DNA of 64,000 bases, from contig PCVY01000065.1 of assembly GCA_002787155.1 (NCBI GenBank), forward strand, positions 1,286 through 65,285. Direction: 5' to 3'. This document shows, one piece after another, positions 2,602 to 17,701 of the stretch. The notes below the pieces were generated by a model. The model saw nothing but the letters and a program-made list of their open reading frames with translations. It made no database searches and had not been told where the DNA came from. The translations under genes and the position numbers were made by a program. This DNA is from Candidatus Abzuiibacterium crystallinum. GTDB taxonomy: Bacteria; Omnitrophota; Omnitrophia; Omnitrophales; Abzuiibacteriaceae. Within the stretch, counting starts at the first letter, position 1. Each line of letters starts with the position of its first letter.

Positions 2602-2813
2602 CTTTAGCGATTCTTTAACTTAGGGTGAATGATGCCGATAAGCATAACAATTGCCATACCGGTTTTGCCTGCGTAAAAGCTGTAGACAAAGCGTAGGTTA
2701 TTTTAATAAGATATCACAAATTGACAATGCATGACTACGGAATCATGCTATTCAATCAAGCGGCCAAAAAAACGGGTGATCGAGCTTTTTTCATGTTAAT
2801 AAAGCGTTTAGGC

Positions 2814-4157
2814 ATGAAACAAATTGTTTTACTGCTTGTTTGCACTACTTTTCTCTTTTCAATACCCGCCTCAGCCGATCCGAATGACGATTTATATACC
2901 CAAAAATTAAGACACCCTGAAGAAACTTCCGCGAATGCCATCCGTAGCCGCGCCCTCACCCGCTGGATTTTCGGATTACCGGGCCTCCCGATTGATTTAT
3001 TAAAAGCAGGCGCTGATCCGACGATGAGCTACCTCGAAAACAAGCGCATCGTTAAAAAAATTGATTGGGCATGGACTGAAATAAAAAAATATGGTTTCAA
3101 ACCTGAAACTCGTTTTGCGCCGGGCGGTTTCCGCTCCGGTTTGGGATTAAAAATCGAAGGGCATCGGTTATTCAAAACAGATCTTTCTTTACCTCATTTG
3201 CAATATAATGTCTTTGGCGGATTTGTGAACAAAGGAAAGAACGCGCATTATTATGATGTCGGAGCCGACTACAAAATATCATTTGCCAATAACCCCAGCC
3301 TTTATCACGCGAGCACCGCTGCCTTTGAGCATAGACCTCGGGAAGATTTTTTTGGTATCGGACCTGATACCAGTTTGGGAGATGAATCCGATTACAATAA
3401 AGACATGCTTCGCCTGGATACCCGGCTCGGTTATCAATGGACGTTTTCCCTCAAGACGGAGGGGTTCTTTCGCTACAGGCACATCCAGATTGGCAATGGC
3501 CACGAAGAGGACAGTTTTAGAATTAAAGAACATTTCACCGAGGATCAGGTGCCGGGCATTCATGGCAGCAATGTGATCGATTTGGGATTTCTTTTTGAGC
3601 ATGATACCCGTGACATGATTGAAGACCCGATGCAGGGCGGTTACGAAAAGTTTGAAATTTCATTCTCTGACGATGCAAGCGGTGATAATTTTCATTACAT
3701 GAACATTGAATTCCGTGCGGCCCGCTATTTCCAATTGCTCTCAGACCGCCGGATTTTAGCGCTTCGCTTTTATGCCGGGCGTTCGCAGCCTTTGGGCGGC
3801 GGCCAAGTACCTTTTTTTGATTTGCAGCGTTTGGGCGGCTACGGCAATCAAACCTCCGAAAGCGACATGTTACGGGGCTATGAATACAACCGTTTCTTTG
3901 ACCAAACCGCCATTGCCTTTACACCTGAGTATCGTTACAAAATTTGGAACTATAATAATTTTGATGCGGATTCGGTTATTTTTGCGGACATCGGCGGTGT
4001 GTCAAAAGAAATTCATTCGATGGGGTTTGACAAATTGCGCGTTGATTACGGTGTCGGGCTTCGTGTGAAACATCTTCGCGATACTTTTCTTTCGATTGAA
4101 GCAGCGCACGGGAACGAAGGAATCCAATTTTACATTAGGTCCAAAGCGCCTTTTTAA
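2814..4157 (+). CDS. Omp85-family (Bac_surface_Ag) outer-membrane beta-barrel protein
   Basis: Signal peptide MKQIVLLLVCTTFLFSIPASA at the refined ATG start (2814). Barrel-type motifs RGYEYNRFF...EYRY and DYGVGLRV, and a C-terminal aromatic residue (…KAPF). The track ORF starts at 2721 but has no signal peptide there. Confidence 0.65.
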   Translation: MKQIVLLLVCTTFLFSIPASADPNDDLYTQKLRHPEETSANAIRSRALTRWIFGLPGLPIDLLKAGADPTMSYLENKRIVKKIDWAWTEIKKYGFKPETRFAPGGFRSGLGLKIEGHRLFKTDLSLPHLQYNVFGGFVNKGKNAHYYDVGADYKISFANNPSLYHASTAAFEHRPREDFFGIGPDTSLGDESDYNKDMLRLDTRLGYQWTFSLKTEGFFRYRHIQIGNGHEEDSFRIKEHFTEDQVPGIHGSNVIDLGFLFEHDTRDMIEDPMQGGYEKFEISFSDDASGDNFHYMNIEFRAARYFQLLSDRRILALRFYAGRSQPLGGGQVPFFDLQRLGGYGNQTSESDMLRGYEYNRFFDQTAIAFTPEYRYKIWNYNNFDADSVIFADIGGVSKEIHSMGFDKLRVDYGVGLRVKHLRDTFLSIEAAHGNEGIQFYIRSKAPF

Positions 4158-4170
4158 AGCGGGATAAACC

Positions 4171-5814
4171 ATGAAATTTTCAAGCACATTGTTAGGCATT
4201 TTAATCGGTTGCTCCGTCCTCTTGCCGACGGGACAAGCGGATTCTGCCAGTCTTTCCCGGCTTGATCAAAAAATTTCCGGTCGGGAAACAACTTTTTACC
4301 GTGAGTTTTTTGATCAAGTGGTCTATTACCCGCTTGCCAGACTTTTGCGGTGGGATCAATACATCACACGCCATGTCGGCATGGAAGCATTGGATGTGAA
4401 TGTATTTGACGAAGTACCCGATTCGGCCTTCTTTGAAAACCGACTGGGCAAACAATCAATGTCTATTTCCGAAATCGCAAAAGGGCCCGGCGGCACCCCG
4501 CCCGAAACAAAAGGGCCTTGGGTAGTTACCAAGGGTAAGGATGACGGTTACACCGTCGGGTTTTTTATCAAAGATGCCAAGGGTGATAAATATCTTTTGA
4601 AGTTTGACCCGGCTGATCATCCGGAAATGGCCACATCTGCTGAAATCATTGCCCACAAGTTTTTTTATGCTTTTGGCTACCATGTCCCGAGTTACGCCAT
4701 CGTTTATTTCAAACCCGATATTTTGGAGGCAGGACCAAACGCAACCTACTACAACGGAAACGGTTTTAAAAAGAAACTCGATAACAGCGCTATTCAAGAA
4801 TTGCTGCAAAAAGCACCGGTGACAAAAAACGGCCGTTATCGTGCCGTGGCGAGCCGTATTTTAGACGGTATTCCCAAAGGATACATGAGTTTAGAGGGCA
4901 GACGCTCAAGCGATCCGGACGATTTGATTCCGCACGAAGACCGCCGCGAGATTCGCGCGCTCGAAGTGATCGGGGCCTGGACAAATCAATATGATCTGCG
5001 TTCCGGCAACACGCTTGATATGTTAATCGATGAGAATGGGAAAGCTTACTTGAAACATTATATCATTGATTTTGGGTCCTCTTTCGGCAGCGCCGGCTAC
5101 CGGGCCAAGCACCCTTCCGCTGCTCATGAAACCGTGATCGACTTCGGGGCCATTGCGCGCGCCTTTGTTGAATTGAAAGTAGAAGATAAAGTATGGGAAG
5201 ACCGCTGGGATCAAAACGGAAGAACCATTGCTTATCAATCGTTGGGTTATTTCGATAATATCCATTTTAATCCTGCCGCCTGGCGCTCGCAGTTGGATCA
5301 AGAAGCCTTTCTCAGACTAACCGAAGCTGACGGGTATTGGGCTTCTAAAATCATTGCACGATTCAGCGATGAGATGATCCGCGCTGTTGTGAAAACGGGC
5401 GAAATCACCAACCAAGAAGCAGAATCATTTTTAATTGATACGCTGATCGAACGCCGGGATATGATTGTCCGTTACTGGTTCTCAAAAGCAGTCCCTCTTG
5501 AGTCCATCCAAGTAAAGCCGGTGAATACCACAACTTATTCGCTGAATTTTGAAGACCTGGCGGTGGCTCACGGTATAGACTCACCCATGAGCGTCAAATA
5601 CAGATGGCGCACTAAACGCGGGTCATGGCAGGAATACCAGGCCTCTCCAGCTTCTCTTCAGCTAGATACCGACCGCCTGAAAGAAACAGTTTTCATAGAA
5701 CGGTGGTCATCGGCGTCTCAGAAATGGTCATCACTCCCCCTTCGCCTCAAATTAAGCCGCTCAGCCTCTCAAGAACCGTTTCACTTAAGCGGCATTAATC
5801 GCGGGCACGATTAA
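4171..5814 (+). CDS. Sec-exported (probable lipoprotein) protein with PI3/PI4-kinase-like catalytic motifs
   Basis: N-terminus MKFSSTLLGILIGCSV with a lipobox-like LIGC. Residues 144-160 read K-FDPADHPEMATSAEII (compare PI3K FKNGDDLRQDMLTLQII). Residues 275-305 read DLRSGNTLDMLIDENGKAYLKHYIIDFGSSFG (compare DRHxxNIMV...HIDFGHFLG). The gene starts 13 nt after the Omp85 gene. Confidence 0.45.
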   Translation: MKFSSTLLGILIGCSVLLPTGQADSASLSRLDQKISGRETTFYREFFDQVVYYPLARLLRWDQYITRHVGMEALDVNVFDEVPDSAFFENRLGKQSMSISEIAKGPGGTPPETKGPWVVTKGKDDGYTVGFFIKDAKGDKYLLKFDPADHPEMATSAEIIAHKFFYAFGYHVPSYAIVYFKPDILEAGPNATYYNGNGFKKKLDNSAIQELLQKAPVTKNGRYRAVASRILDGIPKGYMSLEGRRSSDPDDLIPHEDRREIRALEVIGAWTNQYDLRSGNTLDMLIDENGKAYLKHYIIDFGSSFGSAGYRAKHPSAAHETVIDFGAIARAFVELKVEDKVWEDRWDQNGRTIAYQSLGYFDNIHFNPAAWRSQLDQEAFLRLTEADGYWASKIIARFSDEMIRAVVKTGEITNQEAESFLIDTLIERRDMIVRYWFSKAVPLESIQVKPVNTTTYSLNFEDLAVAHGIDSPMSVKYRWRTKRGSWQEYQASPASLQLDTDRLKETVFIERWSSASQKWSSLPLRLKLSRSASQEPFHLSGINRGHD

Positions 5815-5821
5815 AACGCTC

Positions 5822-8266
5822 ATGTTTGCAGACTTCATTACAAAACTGATACAACCCATTGTTAAAATCCGCCGCAGCGAATGGCTGAAAGCGGGCATGA
5901 TGTTTATTTATGCCTTTACCATTTTTGCCACTCTCTACGTTTTTAAACCGGTCCGTTCTTCCCTTTATCTAGACGCCCGCGGCGCAGAAAACTTGTGGTT
6001 AGCTTACTTTTTTGAAGGTGTCGTTCTTTTTGTCATCACCTACCTTTATGTCAAACTAGCAGACAGATTTAAAAACAAGAATCACTTCTTTACCTTCACG
6101 ACTCTTTTTTTAATTTTCAATATCTTAATTTTCTACTTCTGCTTTCAAATGAACGTGAAAGAAAGCTGGCTGGTGCTCTTCTTTTACGGCTGGGTGGCCA
6201 CGTATTCGGTGACCGTTGCCACGCAATTTTGGACCATGGCTAATGATATTTTTAACATGGACGAAGCCAAACGGTTATTCGGATTTATCATCAGCGGCGG
6301 CAGTTTGGGCGGTGTGGTGGGCGGTGGTTTAACCAAATTGTTTGCCGAGCGGTTTGGAACGGAAAATTTGCTTCTCATGCCGGTCCTTTTTCTGACAATT
6401 TCGATTATTGTGACTGAAATTGTCTGGCGAAGCGAACGGACAAAGGCAGGCCCGCTTAAGGAAGTTAAGAAATCGGGTAAGCATGAAAGCCTCACTCGTG
6501 TTTTGCGGCTTTTATTTAAATCCAGGTACTTGCTCTTAATTGCCGGCATTGTGTTGTTTGCAAAAGCCGTCTCAACCATTGTGGATAATCAATTCAGCGG
6601 GGTCGTTGAACTGGCCATCCGTGAAAAAGATGTCCGCACTGCTTTCTTCGGCGGTTTCTTTTCGGCCCTCAACATGGTTTCTTTTATTTTGCAGCTTTAT
6701 GTCACCAGCAAAGTCCTGCGTTATTTAGGAATTAGTATCGCCCTTTTGATGCTTCCCGGCGGACTATTGATCGGTGCTTCTTTGACGATCTTATTCCCCA
6801 TCCTTCCCTTTGCCATGGCAGCCCGTATGTACGACGGCGGACTCAACTATTCGATTAATTTATTAAGCAAAGAAATTCTTTACCTGCCGGTCGCAAGTGA
6901 AACCCGTTACCGCGTAAAACCAGTGATTGACATGTTGGTTTTTCGTCTCGCCAAAGTATTTGCAGCCGCTTTGATTTTCATAGCCCTGAAGTTTGTCGGA
7001 TTGCGCGTTGATCAGCTGGGCATTGTTGTCCTGGTGATTCTGCCGTTTTGGTTGTGGACAGCTTGGCGGGTGAAACACGAGTATGTTCAATCAATTCGCC
7101 AGCTTTTAACTAATGAAAAACGCGTCAAACGTTTTAAAGAAACTTCCCAGAAGCGCGTGACGGACGTTTTGATGAATCTTTTTGAAGAAAAATCCTGCCA
7201 AGAATTAAGGGATTTATTTTATGACATTCCCTCGCATATGAGAAAAATGTCGGCGGCCGCTTGTCTGGCTTTTTATGGCGGCGGCAGAGACGTGGGTAAG
7301 GTAGGTAAATTAGTTCAAGAAATGGTGCGTTATGAAGCGCTGGAGTATCAAAAAAACAGGCCCTTGTTAAATCCGCGAACGGAGAGTACCGGTCATTACC
7401 AATGGGTGGATGAGTACCTGGTAAAATATCTCAAACTCGAACACCCCAGCGCTAAAAGCAAACTCAGTGAAAAAGAAAATGAAATTCTTGAAAGAATTTC
7501 GGGCATGCTGCAAGACACGAAATGCGATGGGTTGAGTAAACGCAAAGCCATCTCCATTTTAAGAACACTGGGAACGCAAAATGCTTTCGATTTGCTTCTG
7601 GGGGCCTTGCCGGTGACCCGTGATAATTCTATTCGTTTTGACATGATCAAGGGCATGAATCATATTCACACAAAATTATCCAATTATTCTATCCCGCAAA
7701 ATGCCGTTGAAGCCGAGGTCCGTTATGAAATTGAAAATCATAAAGCCATTTTAACTGTGATTCACTTCTATAAATCGCAGGAGAAAAAAACTTCTTCCGT
7801 TGATGAGGATTTTCTTTTAGCGACCCTCAAGATTATCCGGGAAGAAAGTCTTGAACGCATCTTTCGGTTATTGGGATTGATCTATCCAACCGAAGCGATT
7901 CAGACCATCTTCGAGCGTTTAACGGATGAAGAGGCTAGTGAAGACCTTCATGGCAAATCCATCGCCATCGAACTGTTAGGGCATATCGTCAAACCGGAAC
8001 TGTACCACCGCCTGCATCTCTTAGTCGATCATGACCGGTGGCATAAACACCGTCAAACAAACCCCAAAGAAGTCATTAAACATTTCTTGATGGGGGAAGA
8101 CTGCTGGTTTTCCGTGTGTGCTGCTTTTGTGATTGCAGAACTGAGAATGACAGAGCTATACTCGCTTTTTGAACATTTGAGCGGCCGAGAAGCGCCCATT
8201 GTCAAAGAAGCCGTTGCGATTGCTAAATCAAAAGCGGAATCTTTCGATACAGGTACAAACAAATAA
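5822..8266 (+). CDS. TLC/NTT-family (ATP:ADP antiporter-like) transporter fused to a C-terminal HEAT/armadillo-repeat domain
   Basis: The N-terminal 430 aa are polytopic. The segment RRSEWLKAGMMFIYAFTIFATLYVFKPVRSSLYLDARGAENLWL..YVKLADRF aligns with the conserved start of nucleotide transporters (PF03219), including the GAE motif. The C-terminal ~380 aa are alpha-helical repeats (…AAACLAFYGGGRDVG…LRTLGTQNAFDLLLGAL…). Confidence 0.7.
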   Translation: MFADFITKLIQPIVKIRRSEWLKAGMMFIYAFTIFATLYVFKPVRSSLYLDARGAENLWLAYFFEGVVLFVITYLYVKLADRFKNKNHFFTFTTLFLIFNILIFYFCFQMNVKESWLVLFFYGWVATYSVTVATQFWTMANDIFNMDEAKRLFGFIISGGSLGGVVGGGLTKLFAERFGTENLLLMPVLFLTISIIVTEIVWRSERTKAGPLKEVKKSGKHESLTRVLRLLFKSRYLLLIAGIVLFAKAVSTIVDNQFSGVVELAIREKDVRTAFFGGFFSALNMVSFILQLYVTSKVLRYLGISIALLMLPGGLLIGASLTILFPILPFAMAARMYDGGLNYSINLLSKEILYLPVASETRYRVKPVIDMLVFRLAKVFAAALIFIALKFVGLRVDQLGIVVLVILPFWLWTAWRVKHEYVQSIRQLLTNEKRVKRFKETSQKRVTDVLMNLFEEKSCQELRDLFYDIPSHMRKMSAAACLAFYGGGRDVGKVGKLVQEMVRYEALEYQKNRPLLNPRTESTGHYQWVDEYLVKYLKLEHPSAKSKLSEKENEILERISGMLQDTKCDGLSKRKAISILRTLGTQNAFDLLLGALPVTRDNSIRFDMIKGMNHIHTKLSNYSIPQNAVEAEVRYEIENHKAILTVIHFYKSQEKKTSSVDEDFLLATLKIIREESLERIFRLLGLIYPTEAIQTIFERLTDEEASEDLHGKSIAIELLGHIVKPELYHRLHLLVDHDRWHKHRQTNPKEVIKHFLMGEDCWFSVCAAFVIAELRMTELYSLFEHLSGREAPIVKEAVAIAKSKAESFDTGTNK

Positions 8267-8273
8267 GTTTCCG

Positions 8274-9011
8274 ATGGTATTCATTCATTTCTCGAAACAA
8301 CTGAAGCAGGACATCTGGTTATGGGTCAGTACCGGCTTACTGGGTGTTTTTCTGCTGGGAATGAGCGGCTGCCAGTCGGTACCGCTCATGGGGGGTGTGG
8401 GTGCGCAGGGCGAGTTGATTTATTTAACGCCGATCCGTGACATCCCCAAACACATCCAAGAATGCGCCGAATTACAAGACCTCTCAAATGAAGAATCAAA
8501 AATTAACTATCTGATCTATCGCGTGCAAAAATCCGCTCTTCCCTTTACCCGAAACGGTTCCACTTATAGCAGTGAAAACGCGGCACAATTTCTCAGGTGG
8601 AAACTAAACCGGCCGAATTGGCGGCCGTTGGTCCGCAGCGCCCGTGAATTCGTTATCATTATTACCCGTGGTTCATCTAAATCCGGCTTACCTTATGAAG
8701 TAAAATTACCGGACAGAACACACCATGAACTTAAAGCCATTATGATCAATGAGCTTGATTTTCTGGAAGAATATTTAAAAACACGGGAAGCAGGATCTGC
8801 GGCTCATTTGCCCGTCAGCTCCAAAAAAACAGAGGAGGAATCCGCTCAGAATTTACAGCCGGTTCCAGAATCAGACATTCACCGCCGGCATAGTGAACCT
8901 CAACCATTCAGACGCCCGTTTGTTGCCTCACCGCGTTTTGACGATGACGACTATGGACAAACCTCATCCGTATCACCCGCCCAGCAAAACCGTCAGCAGC
9001 CCCGCACATGA
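8274..9011 (+). CDS. Hypothetical lipoprotein with a low-complexity acidic/Q-rich C-terminus
   Basis: Start refined to the ATG at 8274, just after the stop of the preceding gene. Signal peptide with LLGMSGC lipobox. The C-terminal tail is …RFDDDDYGQTSSVSPAQQNRQQPRT. Confidence 0.5.
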   Translation: MVFIHFSKQLKQDIWLWVSTGLLGVFLLGMSGCQSVPLMGGVGAQGELIYLTPIRDIPKHIQECAELQDLSNEESKINYLIYRVQKSALPFTRNGSTYSSENAAQFLRWKLNRPNWRPLVRSAREFVIIITRGSSKSGLPYEVKLPDRTHHELKAIMINELDFLEEYLKTREAGSAAHLPVSSKKTEEESAQNLQPVPESDIHRRHSEPQPFRRPFVASPRFDDDDYGQTSSVSPAQQNRQQPRT

Positions 9012-9781
9012 ATTTCACCGTTATTTGTCTCAATACTTGGGGACAAAACGAACCTTTTGAAAAACGAATGCGTCTCATCACTGCCGAAATCAGAAAATAC
9101 AAACCGCAAGTGGTTTGCCTGCAGGAAGTCTTTGAACCCGTCTTAACGCAAAAGCTCATCAAAGAAATCGGCTTCGGGCATGCGTTTGCCAATCTGGCCG
9201 CAGGGCTTTTGATTTTGTCGCATGACAGGATGGAAGATAAAAAGGAAGTCAAATATCAACATCAATCGACGCTCGAAAATAATGACCGCCGTTTTATCTT
9301 AACGGAGATTCATGCCAACGGAAAAAAATGCTGGATAGGCAACACGCATTTATCCTGGAAGGCGGCTGATGAGACAGCGCGCACCATGCAAACACGCGAA
9401 CTCGCTGCCACGCTGGACGCATTAAAAGCACCCGTGCTGGTGATGGGCGATTTTAACTGCACGCCGGAAAGCGAAGCAATGGCTGTGTTAAGTAAAAGCG
9501 GTTTTACCAATGTATATGACCGCCTTTACCCGGGGAAAAATGTTTTTACGTGGGACAATCAGCGAAACCCCTATCTTAAAACACATGCCGCCATCCTGCC
9601 CAATCGGCGCATTGACCATCTTTATATGAATCAAGCCTTTCAGGAAGTGTTTAAACCCCAAAGCTGCCGGCTCATTTTCACCACGCCTGATGAAGCGGGC
9701 GATTTCCCGTCCGATCACTTTGGTTGGCTAGCTACCTTCCGCACCTGGGGTCAGGTCCCGGACCTGACCCCAAGTCTTTGA
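9008..9781 (+). CDS. Endonuclease/exonuclease/phosphatase (EEP) family phosphoesterase
   Basis: Motifs CLQEV, GDFNCTPES and SDHFG. The last nine codons are encoded by the REP palindrome. Confidence 0.8.
   Translation: MNFTVICLNTWGQNEPFEKRMRLITAEIRKYKPQVVCLQEVFEPVLTQKLIKEIGFGHAFANLAAGLLILSHDRMEDKKEVKYQHQSTLENNDRRFILTEIHANGKKCWIGNTHLSWKAADETARTMQTRELAATLDALKAPVLVMGDFNCTPESEAMAVLSKSGFTNVYDRLYPGKNVFTWDNQRNPYLKTHAAILPNRRIDHLYMNQAFQEVFKPQSCRLIFTTPDEAGDFPSDHFGWLATFRTWGQVPDLTPSL
9747..9771. repeat. REP palindrome GGGGTCAGGTCC-C-GGACCTGACCCC
   Basis: 25-nt sequence with 12-bp perfectly complementary arms. It lies at the convergent junction of the EEP gene and the RAYT gene. Confidence 0.85.
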
Positions 9782-10374
9782 ACAAATTCTTGGCTACCAA
9801 GAATTCCGTTTCCAACAGCATTTTGCAATGGGTTTATATTGGTTATTAACCCTTTGTGGACAAAAGTCTGATAATCAACCGGCGATTGAAACTGATTCAT
9901 AATTTCCAATGAACCTAGAAAAGAGGGTGGTTCGTCACGCACAAAATAACGCATGCTTGACCAAACATAATCGACAGGATTGTCTACTAATTTGGCTTTG
10001 CATGGGTTTAGGTGAATATAGCGCGATAATTCTAAAAGATAGGTATCTTTATCAATAACAATCGATTTATATCTTCCTTGAAATAAATGACCAACTCGTT
10101 CGTGTCTATAATTAAATCGCATCGTATAAGTCCCAATTAATCTTTTCATAAAAACAGCGAGATTGGCCTGTTTGGTCTGAATGAGTAAATGAAAATGGTT
10201 GGGCATGATACAATAAGCATAAATAACAACTTCATCTTTCTCCGCACACTCAACCAATATGCTCAAAAACATACGATAGTCGTACTCTTCCCTTACAATT
10301 TCTCTCTTTTCGTTACCTCGAGAGAAAACGTGATAATAAGCACCTGGAAATTGTAGACGTAATGATCTTGCCAT
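9751..10374 (-). mobile_element. REP-associated tyrosine transposase (RAYT, IS200/IS605 TnpA-like Y1 HuH enzyme)
   Basis: HuH motif MPNHFHLLIQ and a downstream catalytic Tyr region (…NYRHERVGHLFQGRYKS…). Flanked by two inverted copies of the same REP palindrome. Confidence 0.85.
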
Positions 10375-10466
10375 CAGAAATATGTGTGGGGAAACTTAAA
10401 AAAAACAGCTGTGGGAGATAACTAATATTACTCATCCGTCTATAAAAGTCAATCAAAAAAAATCTT

Positions 10467-10491
10467 GGGGTCAGGTCCGGGACCTGACCCC
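10467..10491. repeat. REP palindrome, inverted copy (GGGGTCAGGTCC-G-GGACCTGACCCC)
   Basis: Exact reverse complement of the 9747 copy. It encodes the last codons of PolX. Confidence 0.85.
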
Positions 10492-12195
10492 ACGGAAAAA
10501 AGATTCGATTTCGGAGGCGGAGCGGGTATTTAAAACGTGTTTTTTATCCAGCCATCCTTTTCGGGCAATGCCGACACCAAAACAAATGTCCCCTAACCCT
10601 TCGGGATCGTGGGCATCCGGATTAATGCTGGTCAAAAGCTTGCGTTCACCGAGGCTTTTGAGCAAACGCCAGTCAAGATCCAAGCGATGCGGATTGGCAT
10701 TGAGTTCAATCACGCAGCGATTCTTTTCGCATTCGTCAAAAATCTCCTCATAATCGAGATCATACCCGGCTCTGCCGAGCAGCAAGCGGCCGGAAATATG
10801 CCCAATCATGGTGGTATAAGGATTCTGAGCAGCGCGGATGAGCCGTTTGGTCATTTGGCCGCGGTTCATGCCGAAACGGCTGTGAACGGAGGCAATGATA
10901 AAATCAAACGTTTTAAGAATTTTGTCGGGGTAATCGAGCGAGCCGTCTTCTAGAATGTCTGATTCGATCCCCTTAAAAATCTTTATCTTCTTAAATTTTT
11001 TCTGCAGCCGATCTATTTCTTGGTGCTGCGATTCAATCCGTTTTGCCGAAAGTCCGTTGGCATAATGAGCCGATTGGGAATGATCGCTGATGCCGATATA
11101 CGCATGCCCCAGATCTTGTGCGGTTTGAACCATCGTCTCAAGACTGGCACTGCCGTCCGAATACGTTGAATGGGCGTGAAAAATGCCTTTGATGTCTTTT
11201 ATCTTGAGAAGAATGGGCATTTTCTCCTTTTTGGCTGCTTCTATTTCACCCATATTTTCACGTAATTCCGGCTCAATGTAAGCCATCCCGAGTTTTTCAT
11301 AAATAGCAGCTTCTGAACGGCAAGGAACTAATTTGCTGCCTTTAAACAATCCGTATTCGTTCATTTTAAGGCCGCGCTGTTTGGCAAGCGTCCTGAGGGC
11401 CACGTTGTGTTCTTTTGATCCCGTAAAGTGCTGGAGCGCATAAGGATATTCAACGGAAGAAACAGTCCTTAAATCAACCGGAAGACCGGATTTCAGAATC
11501 ACACTTGATTTGGTCTCACCTTGCGCCACTATGCGCTCCACGTTCGGAAACGATGCAAACTGCTTGTGAACGGCAGCGTGTTTAGCAGCAGCGGCTAAGA
11601 TGTCAATATCATGCACAATTTCTTTGTGCCGCCGCAAACTTCCGGCGATGGCAATGGCTTTCACTTCTTTGTGCTTTTTTAAAAATGCAACCAATTCAAG
11701 CGCTTCATGGCTTGCCTGTGAGACCAAGAAGAAACCTTTGGTCTTTTGATAATGTTCGATTCCTTGTAAAATTTTTTGCTGCGACTTTTCGCCAAAACCT
11801 TCCAACGCGAGCAATCGGTTTTCTTTGCAGGCATATTGAAGTTCGGCGATGTTTTTAACGTCTAACTTTTCATAAAGCGTTTTAGCACGTTTAGGACCAA
11901 CACCCGGAATATGAAGAATCTCCAAAAAACCTTCCGGAAAGGATTTTCTAAGTTCATCGTGATCTTTGGAATAGCCTTTTTTGTAAAGTTCTTTGATGAG
12001 TTCCGAAATACCCTTACCGACACCGGGAATTTTGGTGAGTGTGTCGCTTTCGGCTAAAACTTCGAGATTTTCGTTAACGGATTCAATCGACCTGGCAGCG
12101 TTTTGGAACGCCCGCACACGGAAAGGATTAGCGCTCTTGAGTTCCAAGAGCACTGCCATTTCTTCTAAGATCTCTATAACTTTGTTGCGGTCCAT
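10471..12195 (-). CDS. polX: DNA polymerase X family protein with C-terminal PHP phosphoesterase domain
   Basis: N-terminal HhH/Pol-beta nucleotidyltransferase region (GVGKGISELIKE…, DIDILAAAA). C-terminal PHP motifs (HAHSTYSDGSASLETMV, ISDHSQ, IELNANPHRLD). Confidence 0.9.
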   Translation of the reverse strand: MDRNKVIEILEEMAVLLELKSANPFRVRAFQNAARSIESVNENLEVLAESDTLTKIPGVGKGISELIKELYKKGYSKDHDELRKSFPEGFLEILHIPGVGPKRAKTLYEKLDVKNIAELQYACKENRLLALEGFGEKSQQKILQGIEHYQKTKGFFLVSQASHEALELVAFLKKHKEVKAIAIAGSLRRHKEIVHDIDILAAAAKHAAVHKQFASFPNVERIVAQGETKSSVILKSGLPVDLRTVSSVEYPYALQHFTGSKEHNVALRTLAKQRGLKMNEYGLFKGSKLVPCRSEAAIYEKLGMAYIEPELRENMGEIEAAKKEKMPILLKIKDIKGIFHAHSTYSDGSASLETMVQTAQDLGHAYIGISDHSQSAHYANGLSAKRIESQHQEIDRLQKKFKKIKIFKGIESDILEDGSLDYPDKILKTFDFIIASVHSRFGMNRGQMTKRLIRAAQNPYTTMIGHISGRLLLGRAGYDLDYEEIFDECEKNRCVIELNANPHRLDLDWRLLKSLGERKLLTSINPDAHDPEGLGDICFGVGIARKGWLDKKHVLNTRSASEIESFFRGVRSRT

Positions 12196-14344: not shown

Positions 14345-15901
14345 TTACTTTTTTTTACGTTTCAAAATCGCATAATTATTCCATTTCTGAACCGGCTCGT
14401 AATTCTGTACAACCCAATCGCGCAATCTCAAATACTGAATGATAAACGTCACCTGGAATCTTTTGAAACGATGAGTGATAATCCAATCTGGTGGATTATC
14501 TATGATATGTTGACGAACTGTTTCCAATTGTTCTCCTGGTGCTGGGATATCTTTTTCGCTAAACATAAATGGAACACCTTTGTAACTATCTCGCCCCGAC
14601 AAAGCATAAATAATTTGAAGATCCGATAATACCAACACTTGTTCTTCTTTAGGTACCTGCTTCAAAAATTGTACGATGATATCAATGTCTTCGCCGTCCT
14701 CTTTTTGAAACATCCAGCCTTGAAGCGCTTTTGTTTTAAGTGGATAATCCCCAAAAGGACTTCCAGAATAACTCCACACTTTCAATTCAAGTCCATATAC
14801 AATTGATTTTAGAATAAATAAGCTGGTTAGAACACTTAACCAAATAACCCCACGTTTAAAATCATGCTTCTCTTTCGATTTGATTTTCGGAGCAACTTTT
14901 GAAATTAAAATAAACCCTAATGCACAAGCCAGCCCCCATAGAGGCACATTAGCATCACGCAACATAGAACCAGTCAAGATTGAAAATACGCCAACGAATA
15001 AGATGCCTACAAATATAAATAATTCTCTTTTAAACTGTAAAACGTGTTTTTTGCATGCCCATATGACAATCAGACCGATCAACCAATAATAATTTCTAAA
15101 CCAGCTAATGGGCGTTAATATATAAAGCAACCGTCTTTTCTGAAAAAACGTGCTTTGCACAAAAGCGTAGTTGAGAAAAGCTTGATTGAAGTATTTGTCT
15201 GGCACGCCTAATAGTAAAAGAATAATCAACACGGTTGATATAGTTCCTACTAAATACATTAAACATATTTTCTTATTGCACGTGAAAAAGAAAGTAATGG
15301 TGAAAATGAATATATAAGCTAAACCAATATTTGATTTTGACAAAAACGAAAGCCCTGTGAGAATTCCGATAAAAAAGGATGTACCATTATTTCGCCCACT
15401 GTCACCTTCTTTTAGACTCAACACCAATAGAACGGTTGCTAAAATACCCCATAAATGTGCTGTTTGATCATACCAGGGGTGAGAGATGGGCCAGTAAAAA
15501 CATGTGGCGGTCAATAAAGTGACAAGTAGTGTTTGGAGGGTACTCACAAAGTGGCGGCTCAAGAGAAAAGTGGCGAAGGTAACGAGAGAACTTATCGCTA
15601 TCAAATGTGCAAGAATAGCTTCTTTGCTAAAATTGAATATCTGAAAGAAGAATGCTTGTAAATAAAGATGAATTGGCCCCGTAAAATACATGAAATCAAT
15701 ATAAGGAATTTGCCCCTTATAAACACGCCAGCCTCCATCCAAAAATGCCCCCATATCAAAGATATTAAACCCACGAAAAGCGTTACAGCTAAGAAACCAT
15801 CCATTCACAGCAAGTGTGGCTACCAAGCCAATAAACCCAATCTGTTCGTTCTGGTTTTTTTTCTGTGATTTCATAGGTTGTAGCTTTATTTTACTTATCA
15901 T
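14345..15901 (-). CDS. Polytopic membrane protein, probable GT-C-fold glycosyltransferase (ArnT/PMT-like)
   Basis: 518 aa with at least 10 predicted TM helices and a C-terminal soluble domain. Last gene of the pilus supercluster. The family assignment is tentative. Confidence 0.45.
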   Translation of the reverse strand: MISKIKLQPMKSQKKNQNEQIGFIGLVATLAVNGWFLSCNAFRGFNIFDMGAFLDGGWRVYKGQIPYIDFMYFTGPIHLYLQAFFFQIFNFSKEAILAHLIAISSLVTFATFLLSRHFVSTLQTLLVTLLTATCFYWPISHPWYDQTAHLWGILATVLLVLSLKEGDSGRNNGTSFFIGILTGLSFLSKSNIGLAYIFIFTITFFFTCNKKICLMYLVGTISTVLIILLLLGVPDKYFNQAFLNYAFVQSTFFQKRRLLYILTPISWFRNYYWLIGLIVIWACKKHVLQFKRELFIFVGILFVGVFSILTGSMLRDANVPLWGLACALGFILISKVAPKIKSKEKHDFKRGVIWLSVLTSLFILKSIVYGLELKVWSYSGSPFGDYPLKTKALQGWMFQKEDGEDIDIIVQFLKQVPKEEQVLVLSDLQIIYALSGRDSYKGVPFMFSEKDIPAPGEQLETVRQHIIDNPPDWIITHRFKRFQVTFIIQYLRLRDWVVQNYEPVQKWNNYAILKRKKK

Positions 15902-15919
15902 GCTTAGAAAACTGGTTGG

Positions 15920-17701
15920 TTACCTTGCCTCACTTGCGTCATAGTACAGCCCATCATCAAATAGAAGCGTTTCAGGATACTTTTCTATCGACCGGTTGTA
16001 AGCTCTTTGTTTCTTAATTGTTAACTTGAGATAAGACAACGCTTGAAAGTCATTTTGATAACTAAGTCTAAATGCACGATAAAATTGTTCCGTTGCTTTC
16101 ATCTTTAAATCTAATTCCAGAAACGCTAACCCAAGATTCAGCGCGGCAGATTTCGCTCCCTCAAAATTCTGGCTTGCTTTTTCGTAGTACGAAACAGCCT
16201 TTTGAGGGTTATTTCTAATAAATAATTCCAAATTTCCTAAGTTCACATAACTAATGTAGTCCTGAGGAAATATTTCAATGCTTTTGAGTAATTGCCTCTC
16301 TGCGCGATGATAATTTGCGGTTCTTGCTAACAAGCTGCCAAGATGGGAGTGTGCTAGAAAAGAATTTGGATTTTTCTTTAAAGTGTCTGTCCATAAACTA
16401 TCTATATTTTTAAAACTCAATGAACGCTTTACAGTTAATAAACCAATAACTGATACAAAAACACAAATAATAAAGAAATAGAGAAGTCTATAGTATTTGC
16501 TACTTAGAAATCTTAACCCATTGCTTACGGAAGCTGAAAATAACACAATTGGCCCAATGCTAGCTAAGTATTGAAAATGATCAGCAACAAAAGAAAATAA
16601 CATGGGATACACATTAAAAAATCCTAACGCCGGAACTAAAGTAATAAAGAAGAAAGTAAACGCCACAAATAACCCTTTCCCCAATCGATTTCGCAATATC
16701 CAACTAGTCATCATCAATACAATTGCAAACACTGGGAATAGCCATTGGAACGGATCATTGACGTTAATACTCCATTTAGGGTAAACAAAACTCAGATTTA
16801 TTGGATAGATTAATTTTCCCAAATAAAACCAAAATGCTCTGCCAGCAATGATTACTTTTTCTGGTAGGGAAAATGCCCAAGCTTCCCCGACTGCTCCTAC
16901 TTTGTATTTTTCGAGGAAAATAGTCAACAGACCCATCATAAAACCAAAAAGGAAAAAAGGTAATAACCGAAAGACTTCTTTACGCCAATCAACATCTTCC
17001 TTTCTCCACCAAATTAAGAGCGCAACAATAACAGGTAACGTACAAGTAATTGTTTTACAATGTAAAGCGCAAATATAATAAAGAAGGCAAAGAAAATAGT
17101 ATTTCTTCTGACTTCTGGTTGCATTTGTTTGATTATCTAAATGCCAAAAACGTATTGCCATGAGAATAGAAAGAAGGTAGAAGAAGGTGGACAACACATT
17201 CTTTAATTCACTAATCCAGATTACTGATTCTGCATGAACAGGATGCAAAACAAACAGTGACGCACCTAACCATGCACCTGGTATTCGAAATGATCTTAAT
17301 ATTCTCCATAACAAAACGCCGTTACAAGCATGAATCAAAATATTGAACAAGTGAAAAGAATGTGGATCTGGCCCAAAAAGTTGAAACTCAAGCCATAACG
17401 TTGTGTGAACTAACGGATAATATTGAAGCATTGCTCCAGGCTCAAACCATATGAGCTGGATACCTCCTAATGTCTGGATAATAGGATTATGAAAAATAAT
17501 CTGATCATCATCCCATATAAAATCAAAATAAGTGGCAGGTATATAAACAACTAGCACGATGAAGAAAAGCAGGAGTGCAAGAAGTAAGTTTTTCTGTCGT
17601 TGATCGTTGAGAGGCTTATATTTGAGAAAATCCGATATGTGGGTTTTAAACATAAAAACAAATGCCTGGGGTAAAAGTTTTTTCTCTTTCCCCCCAGGCA
17701 C
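15920..17701 (-). CDS. TMTC/PMT_2-like GT-C glycosyltransferase with C-terminal TPR repeats
   Basis: N-terminal polytopic domain with the acidic loop-1 motif FIWDDDQIIFHNP (DUF1736/PMT-type). C-terminal TPR region (…AHSHLGSLLARTANYHRAERQLLKSIEIFPQDYISYVNLGNLEL…). Confidence 0.6.
   Translation of the reverse strand: MPGGKEKKLLPQAFVFMFKTHISDFLKYKPLNDQRQKNLLLALLLFFIVLVVYIPATYFDFIWDDDQIIFHNPIIQTLGGIQLIWFEPGAMLQYYPLVHTTLWLEFQLFGPDPHSFHLFNILIHACNGVLLWRILRSFRIPGAWLGASLFVLHPVHAESVIWISELKNVLSTFFYLLSILMAIRFWHLDNQTNATRSQKKYYFLCLLYYICALHCKTITCTLPVIVALLIWWRKEDVDWRKEVFRLLPFFLFGFMMGLLTIFLEKYKVGAVGEAWAFSLPEKVIIAGRAFWFYLGKLIYPINLSFVYPKWSINVNDPFQWLFPVFAIVLMMTSWILRNRLGKGLFVAFTFFFITLVPALGFFNVYPMLFSFVADHFQYLASIGPIVLFSASVSNGLRFLSSKYYRLLYFFIICVFVSVIGLLTVKRSLSFKNIDSLWTDTLKKNPNSFLAHSHLGSLLARTANYHRAERQLLKSIEIFPQDYISYVNLGNLELFIRNNPQKAVSYYEKASQNFEGAKSAALNLGLAFLELDLKMKATEQFYRAFRLSYQNDFQALSYLKLTIKKQRAYNRSIEKYPETLLFDDGLYYDASEAR

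Follow-up and report, generated by a model that had tools for sequence, protein, structure and literature searches.

A conserved Omp85-kinase gene pair in Omnitrophota and other phyla, and its possible part in phosphorylation outside the cytoplasm

What holds together five tightly spaced, co-directional genes for an outer-membrane barrel, a kinase-fold protein, a nucleotide-carrier homologue, a lipoprotein and a phosphoesterase? The question is raised by a 64-kb stretch of DNA from contig PCVY01000065.1 of a metagenome-assembled Candidatus Omnitrophota genome (hereafter the window), in which the five open reading frames (ORFs) follow one another on the plus strand with gaps of 13, 7, 7 and −4 nt (Table 1). 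A sequence-only reading of this locus had described the same five ORFs and their spacing and had assigned Omp85, NTT-HEAT and EEP domains, all of which agree with our coordinates and Pfam matches; it had also taken the cluster for an island serving interaction with a host or prey cell. ORF boundaries were the same with an independent gene caller in public copies of the contig, several groundwater samples yielded independent assemblies of the locus, and the 547-aa kinase-fold protein (4171-5814) is identical in Candidatus Omnitrophica bacterium CG11_big_fil_rev_8_21 (GCA_002781965.1, contig PFGO01000092). Our analysis confirms the earlier observation in part: we are confident that the first four genes (2814-9011) are a conserved envelope module and not an island.

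A distribution scan with one genome per species placed the kinase family in 511 species-level genomes from several phyla, and 2,518 representatives at E ≤ 1e-10 were found among 1.84 billion cluster representatives. Eighty kinase-anchored loci, the best of the kinase-family matches and mostly from Omnitrophota, were translated in six frames and searched with the window proteins. In every one of the 68 loci with at least 1.5 kb of upstream DNA, the kinase gene is immediately preceded by an Omp85 gene on its own strand. In 45 of the 80 loci an NTT gene is nearby, downstream in 25 and upstream in 20, and two module orders occur, namely Omp85-kinase-NTT-DUF5329, as in the window, and NTT-DUF5329-Omp85-kinase; in Omnitrophota loci the DUF5329 gene stands 3′ of the NTT gene. 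The reverse test used 80 metagenomic loci anchored on the NTT protein: where at least 5 kb was available on both sides, Omp85 and kinase genes accompanied 14 of 14 close relatives and 4 of 12 distant NTT-HEAT genes. The robust module is thus a gene pair, Omp85-kinase, commonly enlarged to four genes. As for the co-conservation of all five genes, which had been named as a check, four do recur widely, whereas the EEP gene was found in none of the 80 loci, even at E < 1, and stands 3′ of DUF5329 in two related species only (L090 and L177). These two keep all five genes in the same order together with the queG and polX flanks, and L177 also keeps the 4-nt overlap; the EEP gene is a clade-specific addition to the cluster.

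Outside Omnitrophota, the module often holds a calcineurin-like metallophosphoesterase, which was seen in nine kinase-linked loci (Calditrichia, Ignavibacteria and Acidobacteriota where a phylum label is available), either between kinase and NTT or 3′ of NTT. Among solved structures it comes closest to purple acid phosphatases/ACP5 (E 1e-16 and 2.5e-6), and every copy bears a signal peptide or a lipobox. What recurs is therefore a barrel and an exported kinase, together with a nucleotide-carrier homologue and either DUF5329 or an exported phosphatase. The window itself holds no phosphatase-like gene and no second copy of any module gene. As the sequence-only reading had supposed, the combination does not appear to be a described system, no description of it having been found in the literature searched, which was an incomplete collection; taken singly, the parts all belong to known superfamilies, as new or divergent members (noNterm Omp85, NTT-HEAT, the HipA/PI3-4K/CtkA/Fam20/CotH kinases, DUF5329 and EEP).

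Two variations on the gene set were observed. Outside Omnitrophota, some of the loci L136/L138 (2-5659 and 7365-12823), L137, L073, L081, L088 and L158-L160 carry two Omp85-kinase pairs in tandem and some carry two adjacent NTT paralogues; of the side-by-side paralogues, one is a short protein of ~450 aa that lacks HEAT repeats and the other a long NTT-HEAT protein of ~930 aa. On a 4.1-Mb chromosome, a 1,597-aa hybrid histidine kinase (L080, 3461-8251) with receiver, GAF, multiple PAS, HisKA and HATPase domains lies directly 5′ of Omp85-kinase-phosphatase-NTT-HEAT on the same strand, and it could be a regulator of the module.

The kinase-fold protein of the window gave nothing above threshold against Pfam, NCBIfam or PDB sequences (HipA_2 reached 11.6 bits, below the cutoff of 27), and its fold was resolved by structure prediction only. 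A model built from 31 homologues (pLDDT 88, pTM 0.88) has an atypical bilobal kinase fold of the CtkA/Fam20/PI4K-II/CotH/HipA type and a C-terminal FN3-like sandwich, and the helical N-terminal segment bears an EVPDSxFFxNR motif. The top structural matches were H. pylori CtkA, which was the best, animal Fam20C and Bacillus CotH, and identity to these extracytoplasmic kinases is only 9-15%. Weak matches to the HipA_2 and HipA_C Pfam families were obtained for 9 of the 31 homologues (best member E 3.8e-6); judged by these scores, the family is separate from the curated HipA_2, HipA_C and CotH families and is unnamed. CtkA, Fam20C and CotH all act outside the cytoplasm. None of the three is known to have an Omp85 barrel or an NTT carrier as its partner, and CtkA and HipA, unlike the window kinase, have neither this kind of signal peptide nor an FN3-like domain.

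A signal peptide or a lipobox is present in nearly all kinase orthologues with a readable N-terminus. Because the three closest orthologues have Cys-free signal peptides of the signal peptidase I type, the window protein is probably soluble, with signal peptidase I cleaving between GQA and DS. The "kinase-like lipoprotein" of the sequence-only reading is doubtful here as regards the lipoprotein; orthologues of other phyla do carry lipoboxes. Two homologues, P0300 (1,158 aa) and P0268 (742 aa), have long C-terminal extensions with sequence common to both; checked as possible fusions to a module partner, these extensions gave no Pfam domain.

The kinase motifs in the window are K144 (in YLLKFD), E158, D275-L-R-S-G-N280 and D300-F-G; the corresponding β3 Lys, helix-C Glu, DxxxxN loop and DFG Asp are conserved in 62 of 80 orthologues, their catalytic roles being assigned from the motif pattern and not from superposition. 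Presence of the canonical signature K123/K144/D275/[RK]277/N280/D300 was compared with that of an NTT gene, scored at the locus flanks and not genome-wide. Loci with the signature have a linked NTT gene in 47 of 62 cases (27 of 32 with full flanks), and those with a substituted kinase in 0 of 18 (0 of 12 with full flanks), with Omp85 still adjacent. The substituted forms, EEDRDD, EKDSND, EKGSNN, IKDRTG, VRDRTS, QEDRND and KKDVND, fall into about five separate lineages of a neighbour-joining tree. Fisher's test gave p = 2.9e-9 for all loci and 2.9e-7 for those with full flanks, values that overstate independence since a single lineage holds 12 of the 18 variant loci; with the five lineages counted as five events, p is roughly 1e-4. 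In one Omnitrophota clade (L048, L052-L055, L058, L060, L065, L067, L076 and L079), both phosphate-binding lysines (123/144) are replaced by glutamate, and in most of its members N280 is aspartate, with D275 and D300 kept; a reversal of charge of this kind suggests that the ligand has changed and not that the site has simply decayed.

The first gene encodes an Omp85-family protein (PF01103, 66.6 bits) that was modelled (pLDDT 80) as a 16-stranded barrel of the BamA/TamA type at residues 95-447, preceded by ~70 residues of low-confidence helices. Neither the model nor Pfam gave a POTRA domain, Pfam gave no DUF5982 match, and no sequence relative was found in the PDB. Because the barrel lacks POTRA domains and has only those ~70 residues on its N-terminal side, the model assigns it to the noNterm Omp85 class, a recognised subfamily that is functionally uncharacterised (PMC4104836; PMC11358297) and whose genes often adjoin lipoprotein genes (PMC11358297). 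The lid-lock motifs, defined as (L/M)RG(Y/F) in L6 together with FxDxG (PMC11358297), are LRGY at 353-356 and, in β13, FADIG at 390-394; R354 and G394 are kept in 70 of 70 orthologues and D392 in 67 of 70. The protein is alike to the noNterm Omp85 proteins of Heinz and Lithgow (2014, PMC4104836) and to Leptospira LIC12252/12254/12258 (PMC11358297) in its 16-stranded barrel, its RG[YF] and FxDxG motifs and the absence of POTRA domains. It differs from those of Leptospira and Cytophagales in its fixed kinase-fold partner and frequent NTT linkage, neither of which is reported there. A generic BamA paralogue was rejected, the BamA equivalog NF058613 scoring 16.7 against a cutoff of 1050 and POTRA domains being absent. 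Membership of two-partner secretion (TpsB/TpsA, e.g., FhaC/FHA and CdiB/CdiA) was likewise rejected, since the barrel has no POTRA domain and its partner no TPS (haemagglutination activity) domain; the window kinase has no Pfam family above threshold, and its 31 homologues gave only the weak HipA-type matches.

The third protein matches PF03219 (TLC) with 58.2 bits (cutoff 21) and MFS_1 with 48 bits, and its family profile aligns with the solved ADP,ATP carrier protein 1 (9j3n, E 2.8e-26; 9j3j, 1.4e-18). The family motifs FWxxANxI..EAKR, KExxYxP and K..ID are kept. With the family profile, the C-terminal part matches alphaRep/HEAT repeats (1e-10 to 1e-16). The window protein itself gives a weak HEAT_2 match (E 0.0038), and homologues reach 3e-25. 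Hydropathy gave 10 strong transmembrane segments and a K/R-rich central loop, which suggest that both termini, and the HEAT domain with them, are cytoplasmic. NTT-HEAT fusions are widespread in free-living bacteria and uncharacterised (Major, Embley and Williams 2017, PMC5381601), and no functional work on them after 2017 was found in the literature searched. The window protein resembles those fusions in architecture, with its NTT/TLC domain and C-terminal HEAT repeats; the same study reports their linkage to cyclic-nucleotide-binding domains and not to an Omp85-kinase pair (PMC5381601). The fourth protein matches DUF5329 (PF17263, 62.7 bits, cutoff 27). Its lipobox Cys is kept in L090, L177 and many other orthologues, which are mostly lipoproteins; no sequence relative was found in the PDB, and no mention of DUF5329 in the literature searched.

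What might such a set of proteins do? By the textbook view the periplasm is free of ATP, and a periplasmic kinase with intact catalytic residues would need a phosphate donor there. All products except the HEAT domain and the EEP protein would face the periplasm or the outer membrane. We propose, as a tentative reading to which we give slightly less than an even chance, that the module carries out carrier-fed phosphorylation outside the cytoplasm, at the Omp85 barrel. The exported kinase, which its cognate barrel would dock or handle, would phosphorylate an envelope substrate (protein, lipid or glycan), either staying periplasmic or being moved to the surface by the barrel, and the phosphatase, where present, would reverse the reaction. 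Since characterised members of the carrier family exchange ATP for ADP, in a cell that makes its own ATP the NTT carrier would export ATP to the periplasm and ADP would return through it; this export step is the more doubtful part of the proposal. A regulatory or adaptor role would fall to the cytoplasmic HEAT domain and to the DUF5329 lipoprotein. The closest functional analogy is animal Fam20C with its lumenal ATP supply and ACP5: the secretory pathway has to import the ATP that Fam20C needs, and the phosphates added by Fam20C are removed by ACP5.

That diderm bacteria of several phyla run ATP-dependent phosphorylation outside the cytoplasm by means of an NTT carrier, a Fam20/CotH/CtkA-like kinase, a noNterm Omp85 barrel and, in some phyla, a phosphatase as eraser is a wider claim, which we consider to be on the unlikely side. 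If true, the module would be a prokaryotic counterpart of the animal secretory-pathway kinase system, and some of the "ATP/ADP translocases" counted as markers of symbiosis or parasitism in Omnitrophota and elsewhere would be ATP exporters serving the cell's own envelope. A carrier homologue together with an exported kinase with intact residues, and with a phosphatase in some loci, would challenge the view of an ATP-free periplasm. The proposal also offers a first functional hypothesis for the widespread orphan families noNterm Omp85 and NTT-HEAT and for DUF5329. Caution is also advised in using NTT/Tlc homologues as markers of energy parasitism, as has been done for Omnitrophota (PMC10066038), because Acidobacteriota and further lineages held to be free-living have the same module. 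Even if the mechanism is wrong, the gene association (68 of 68, and from both anchors) and the co-variation of kinase and NTT remain.

Several points weigh against the proposed phosphorylation. Every mechanistic step in it is read from fold, motifs and gene linkage, and the roles given to the HEAT domain and DUF5329 are guesses. The carrier scores 48 bits against TIGR00769 (NTP/NDP exchange transporter), and because this is far below the cutoff of 387.2, it belongs to a divergent subfamily whose substrate may not be ATP. No bacterial kinase that uses ATP in the periplasm is known to us, and no description of periplasmic atypical kinases that use ATP was found in our incomplete literature collection. 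To the uneven lineage sampling noted above are added five canonical-kinase loci with full flanks and without a nearby NTT gene. Finally, the Omp85-kinase pair persists without the catalytic residues, so at least part of its function is non-enzymatic and would be a structural role with the barrel; for the carrier-less lineages we infer that the kinase fold is kept as a non-catalytic barrel partner.

This persistence speaks for an alternative that we consider unlikely, in which the two proteins form an outer-membrane biogenesis pair, with Omp85 as insertase or translocase and the kinase fold as its partner or cargo (a pseudokinase plug; compare LptD-LptE, or Slam and its lipoprotein), the other linkages reflecting a shared envelope regulon. 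The pair is the sole invariant part of the module (68 of 68) and outlives the loss of catalytic residues in 18 loci, the Omp85 hallmark motifs are kept, orthologues in other phyla are lipoproteins, as are many neighbours of noNterm Omp85 genes (PMC11358297), and murA and further housekeeping genes are frequent neighbours of the module. Such a pair leaves unexplained why the catalytic residues are conserved in 62 of 80 loci, why they are lost exactly where the NTT gene is missing, and why exported phosphatases belong to the module. The co-variation of the nucleotide-binding residues with a linked NTT gene would be explained equally well by nucleotide scavenging, in which external nucleotides enter at the barrel, the kinase fold binds or re-phosphorylates them in the periplasm, the NTT carrier imports them and the phosphatase trims the surplus; import is the characterised direction of many NTTs (PMC5381601), and the linkage is tight from both anchors. 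We nevertheless find scavenging distinctly unlikely. The L6 lid shuts the lumen of solved Omp85 barrels, and with the lid-lock motifs conserved here the barrel would make a poor nutrient pore. What the carrier is supposed to import would be destroyed by an acid phosphatase. The kinases keep the catalytic Asp275 and the metal-binding Asp300 and not just the phosphate-binding lysines, which argues for catalysis, and a periplasmic donor would still be needed. That five unrelated genes lie side by side by chance is hardly credible: small genomes do pack unrelated genes into operons, and the promoter and terminator scans were not above chance, but the adjacency is kept across phyla, in two gene orders and from both anchors (kinase and NTT), and the catalytic residues co-vary with the carrier. 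Chance is contradicted for the four-gene core and possible for the EEP gene alone.

There remains the host/prey island of the sequence-only reading, in which the kinase is secreted by the barrel onto a partner cell and acts there on membrane phosphoinositides, ATP or nucleotides of the partner are taken up through the NTT carrier and the EEP protein attacks the partner's lipids, the whole being bounded by, or acquired with, a REP-associated tyrosine transposase (RAYT). Omnitrophota are suspected of host dependence, and a symbiosis factor has been seen in their ATP/ADP translocases (PMC10066038), in a survey in which Omp85 is not mentioned and the kinases mentioned are metabolic enzymes only; CtkA, the best structural match of the kinase, is secreted by Helicobacter, energy parasites and plastids are the sources of the characterised NTTs (PMC5381601), and the five-gene order is kept in the two related species. 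We judge this reading very improbable, as distribution, context and composition are all contrary to it. Absence of the genes from free-living relatives had been named as a check, and the Omp85-kinase pair is present in Acidobacteriota/Blastocatellia, Calditrichia, Ignavibacteria, Gemmatimonadetes and Krumholzibacteriia, all represented among the 80 best loci, as are two complete 4.1-Mb chromosomes; the core pair and its NTT linkage occur in phyla generally regarded as free-living. Composition had been named as another, and none of the five genes leaves the spread of 33 long window ORFs in GC, GC3 or codon usage, so that all match the window background, with only the RAYT gene deviating. In ~40 Omnitrophota loci (L010-L079) the module lies 3′ of prfA-prmC-murA-rpsP-trmD-rplS-rnhB-yraN on the same strand; this housekeeping neighbourhood, in which most Omnitrophota have the pair, points to a core-genome context and to vertical inheritance of 2814-9011 rather than mobility. 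In the lineage of the window, the module is relocated between queG/nth and polX. The barrel has no POTRA and the kinase no TPS domain, the EEP protein has no export signal and is not co-conserved, the RAYT gene was inserted later, and the exported phosphatases point to a cycle in the cell's own envelope. A genomic (pathogenicity or symbiosis) island as such was rejected on native composition, cross-phylum core, housekeeping context and the absence of a tRNA gene, the tRNA scan and the Rfam scan of the whole window having given no matches.

Table 1. Features of the module and its surroundings in the window
Feature	Position	Strand	Length	Remarks
POTRA-less (noNterm) Omp85-family outer-membrane barrel	2814..4157	+	447 aa	signal peptide MKQIVLLLVCTTFLFSIPASA, followed by D
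Sec-exported atypical kinase-fold protein	4171..5814	+	547 aa	signal peptide; kinase domain ~110-440; FN3-like beta-sandwich 443-544
NTT-HEAT protein	5822..8266	+	814 aa	TLC/NTT MFS transporter domain ~1-430 and HEAT-like repeats ~450-814 (Pfam and profile matches)
DUF5329 lipoprotein	8274..9011	+	245 aa	lipobox LLGMSGC, followed by Q; low-complexity C-terminal tail
EEP-superfamily phosphoesterase	9008..9781	+	257 aa	without signal peptide; last 12 codons REP-encoded
Divergent intergenic region, nth (minus)/module	2602..2813			one sigma-70-like site at 2683-2712, + strand
Left REP palindrome, TGGGGTCAGGTCCCGGACCTGACCCCA	9746..9772		27 nt	overlaps EEP 3′ end
REP-associated tyrosine transposase (RAYT, Y1 transposase)	9751..10374	-		PF01797, 57.3 bits
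Right REP palindrome	10466..10492		27 nt	encodes last codons of polX; terminator-like on minus strand
polX	10471..12195	-		

The fifth gene stands apart from the others. Its product matches PF03372 (Exo_endo_phos) with 70.7 bits, and its catalytic core starts from the first residues: there is no signal peptide and no hydrophobic segment, and the ORF is not extendable upstream. The protein is thus probably cytoplasmic, and the earlier statement that every product is envelope-targeted fails for this one. Its nearest solved relatives are TDP2 (1.2e-9) and nocturnin, with beta-hemolysin at only 7.6e-4, which speaks against the inositol-5-phosphatase or sphingomyelinase type that had been suggested; a secreted, lipid-attacking enzyme was rejected for lack of an export signal. 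Since the EEP protein and the exported phosphatase of other phyla are both phosphoesterases and their genes occupy the same end of the module, a functional replacement was considered; it is unsupported, as the compartments differ.

Distant EEP homologues (30-33% identity; L170, L171, L172 and L173, in other Omnitrophota) are unlinked to the module and lie in the order PlsC-type acyltransferase, EEP, peptidase M48, peptidase MA_2, unknown gene, BatD and TPR protein, the EEP gene overlapping the end of the acyltransferase gene by 4 nt. Candidatus Taenariivivens baikalensis, whose genome has this cluster, carries the Omp85-kinase pair on another contig, and the module locus L047 and the EEP cluster L172 come from the same genome. 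The acyltransferase and peptidase context hints at a lipid- or envelope-related role of EEP rather than a nuclease. A DNA-repair partner of PolX, TDP2-like and encoded convergently with PolX in three species, is possible; the homologues elsewhere adjoin an acyltransferase.

Downstream of the EEP gene, the RAYT gene with flanking REP palindromes described by the sequence-only reading was found again: the two 27-nt palindromes are the only REP copies within the window, both flank the RAYT gene, and 100 shuffles gave 0 matches like this pair. RAYT scores 75.8 against NF047646, just under the cutoff of 80, and its GC of 0.373 and GC3 of 0.322 lie ~3 sd below the window genes (0.452 ± 0.028 and 0.458 ± 0.043). 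No RAYT gene separates EEP from polX in L090 and L177, where the two genes are immediate neighbours. In the window the native stops of both genes are replaced, that of EEP by a 12-residue REP-encoded tail (9746-9781), TWGQVPDLTPSL and stop, and that of polX (10471-10492) by REP-encoded RGVRSRT and stop. Because the junction in these two relatives has no transposase gene and both gene ends are REP-encoded in the window, with the low GC consistent, REP-RAYT-REP (9746-10492) is a recent insertion at the convergent EEP/polX junction and no part of the module, so that it marks no edge of the cluster as had been supposed. The arrangement is that of REP/RAYT elements, with a Y1 transposase between inverted REPs, here in only two copies within the 64 kb covered, and differs in an NF047646 score just below cutoff. 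RAYT-like genes also lie a few kilobases 3′ of the kinase gene in two unrelated Omnitrophota loci (L056, 12870-13358; L048, 15852-16367), which suggests that REP/RAYT elements are common in Omnitrophota rather than tied to the module.

On the 5′ side, the neighbours of the cluster are nth and queG, on the opposite strand. The module promoter is probably in the divergent region between nth and the first gene (2602-2813), where promoter-like sites are not more frequent than in shuffles and so are weak evidence. Because the promoter and terminator scan gave nothing above shuffles except the REP hairpin, no operon claim is drawn from it. Further downstream, a low-GC stretch at 14500-17700 (0.35-0.38 against a window mean of 0.44) covers two minus-strand ORFs, 14345-15901, for which the public copy of the contig gives a weak PMT_2 glycosyltransferase match, and 15920-17701; this stretch is far more deviant in composition than the five-gene cluster.

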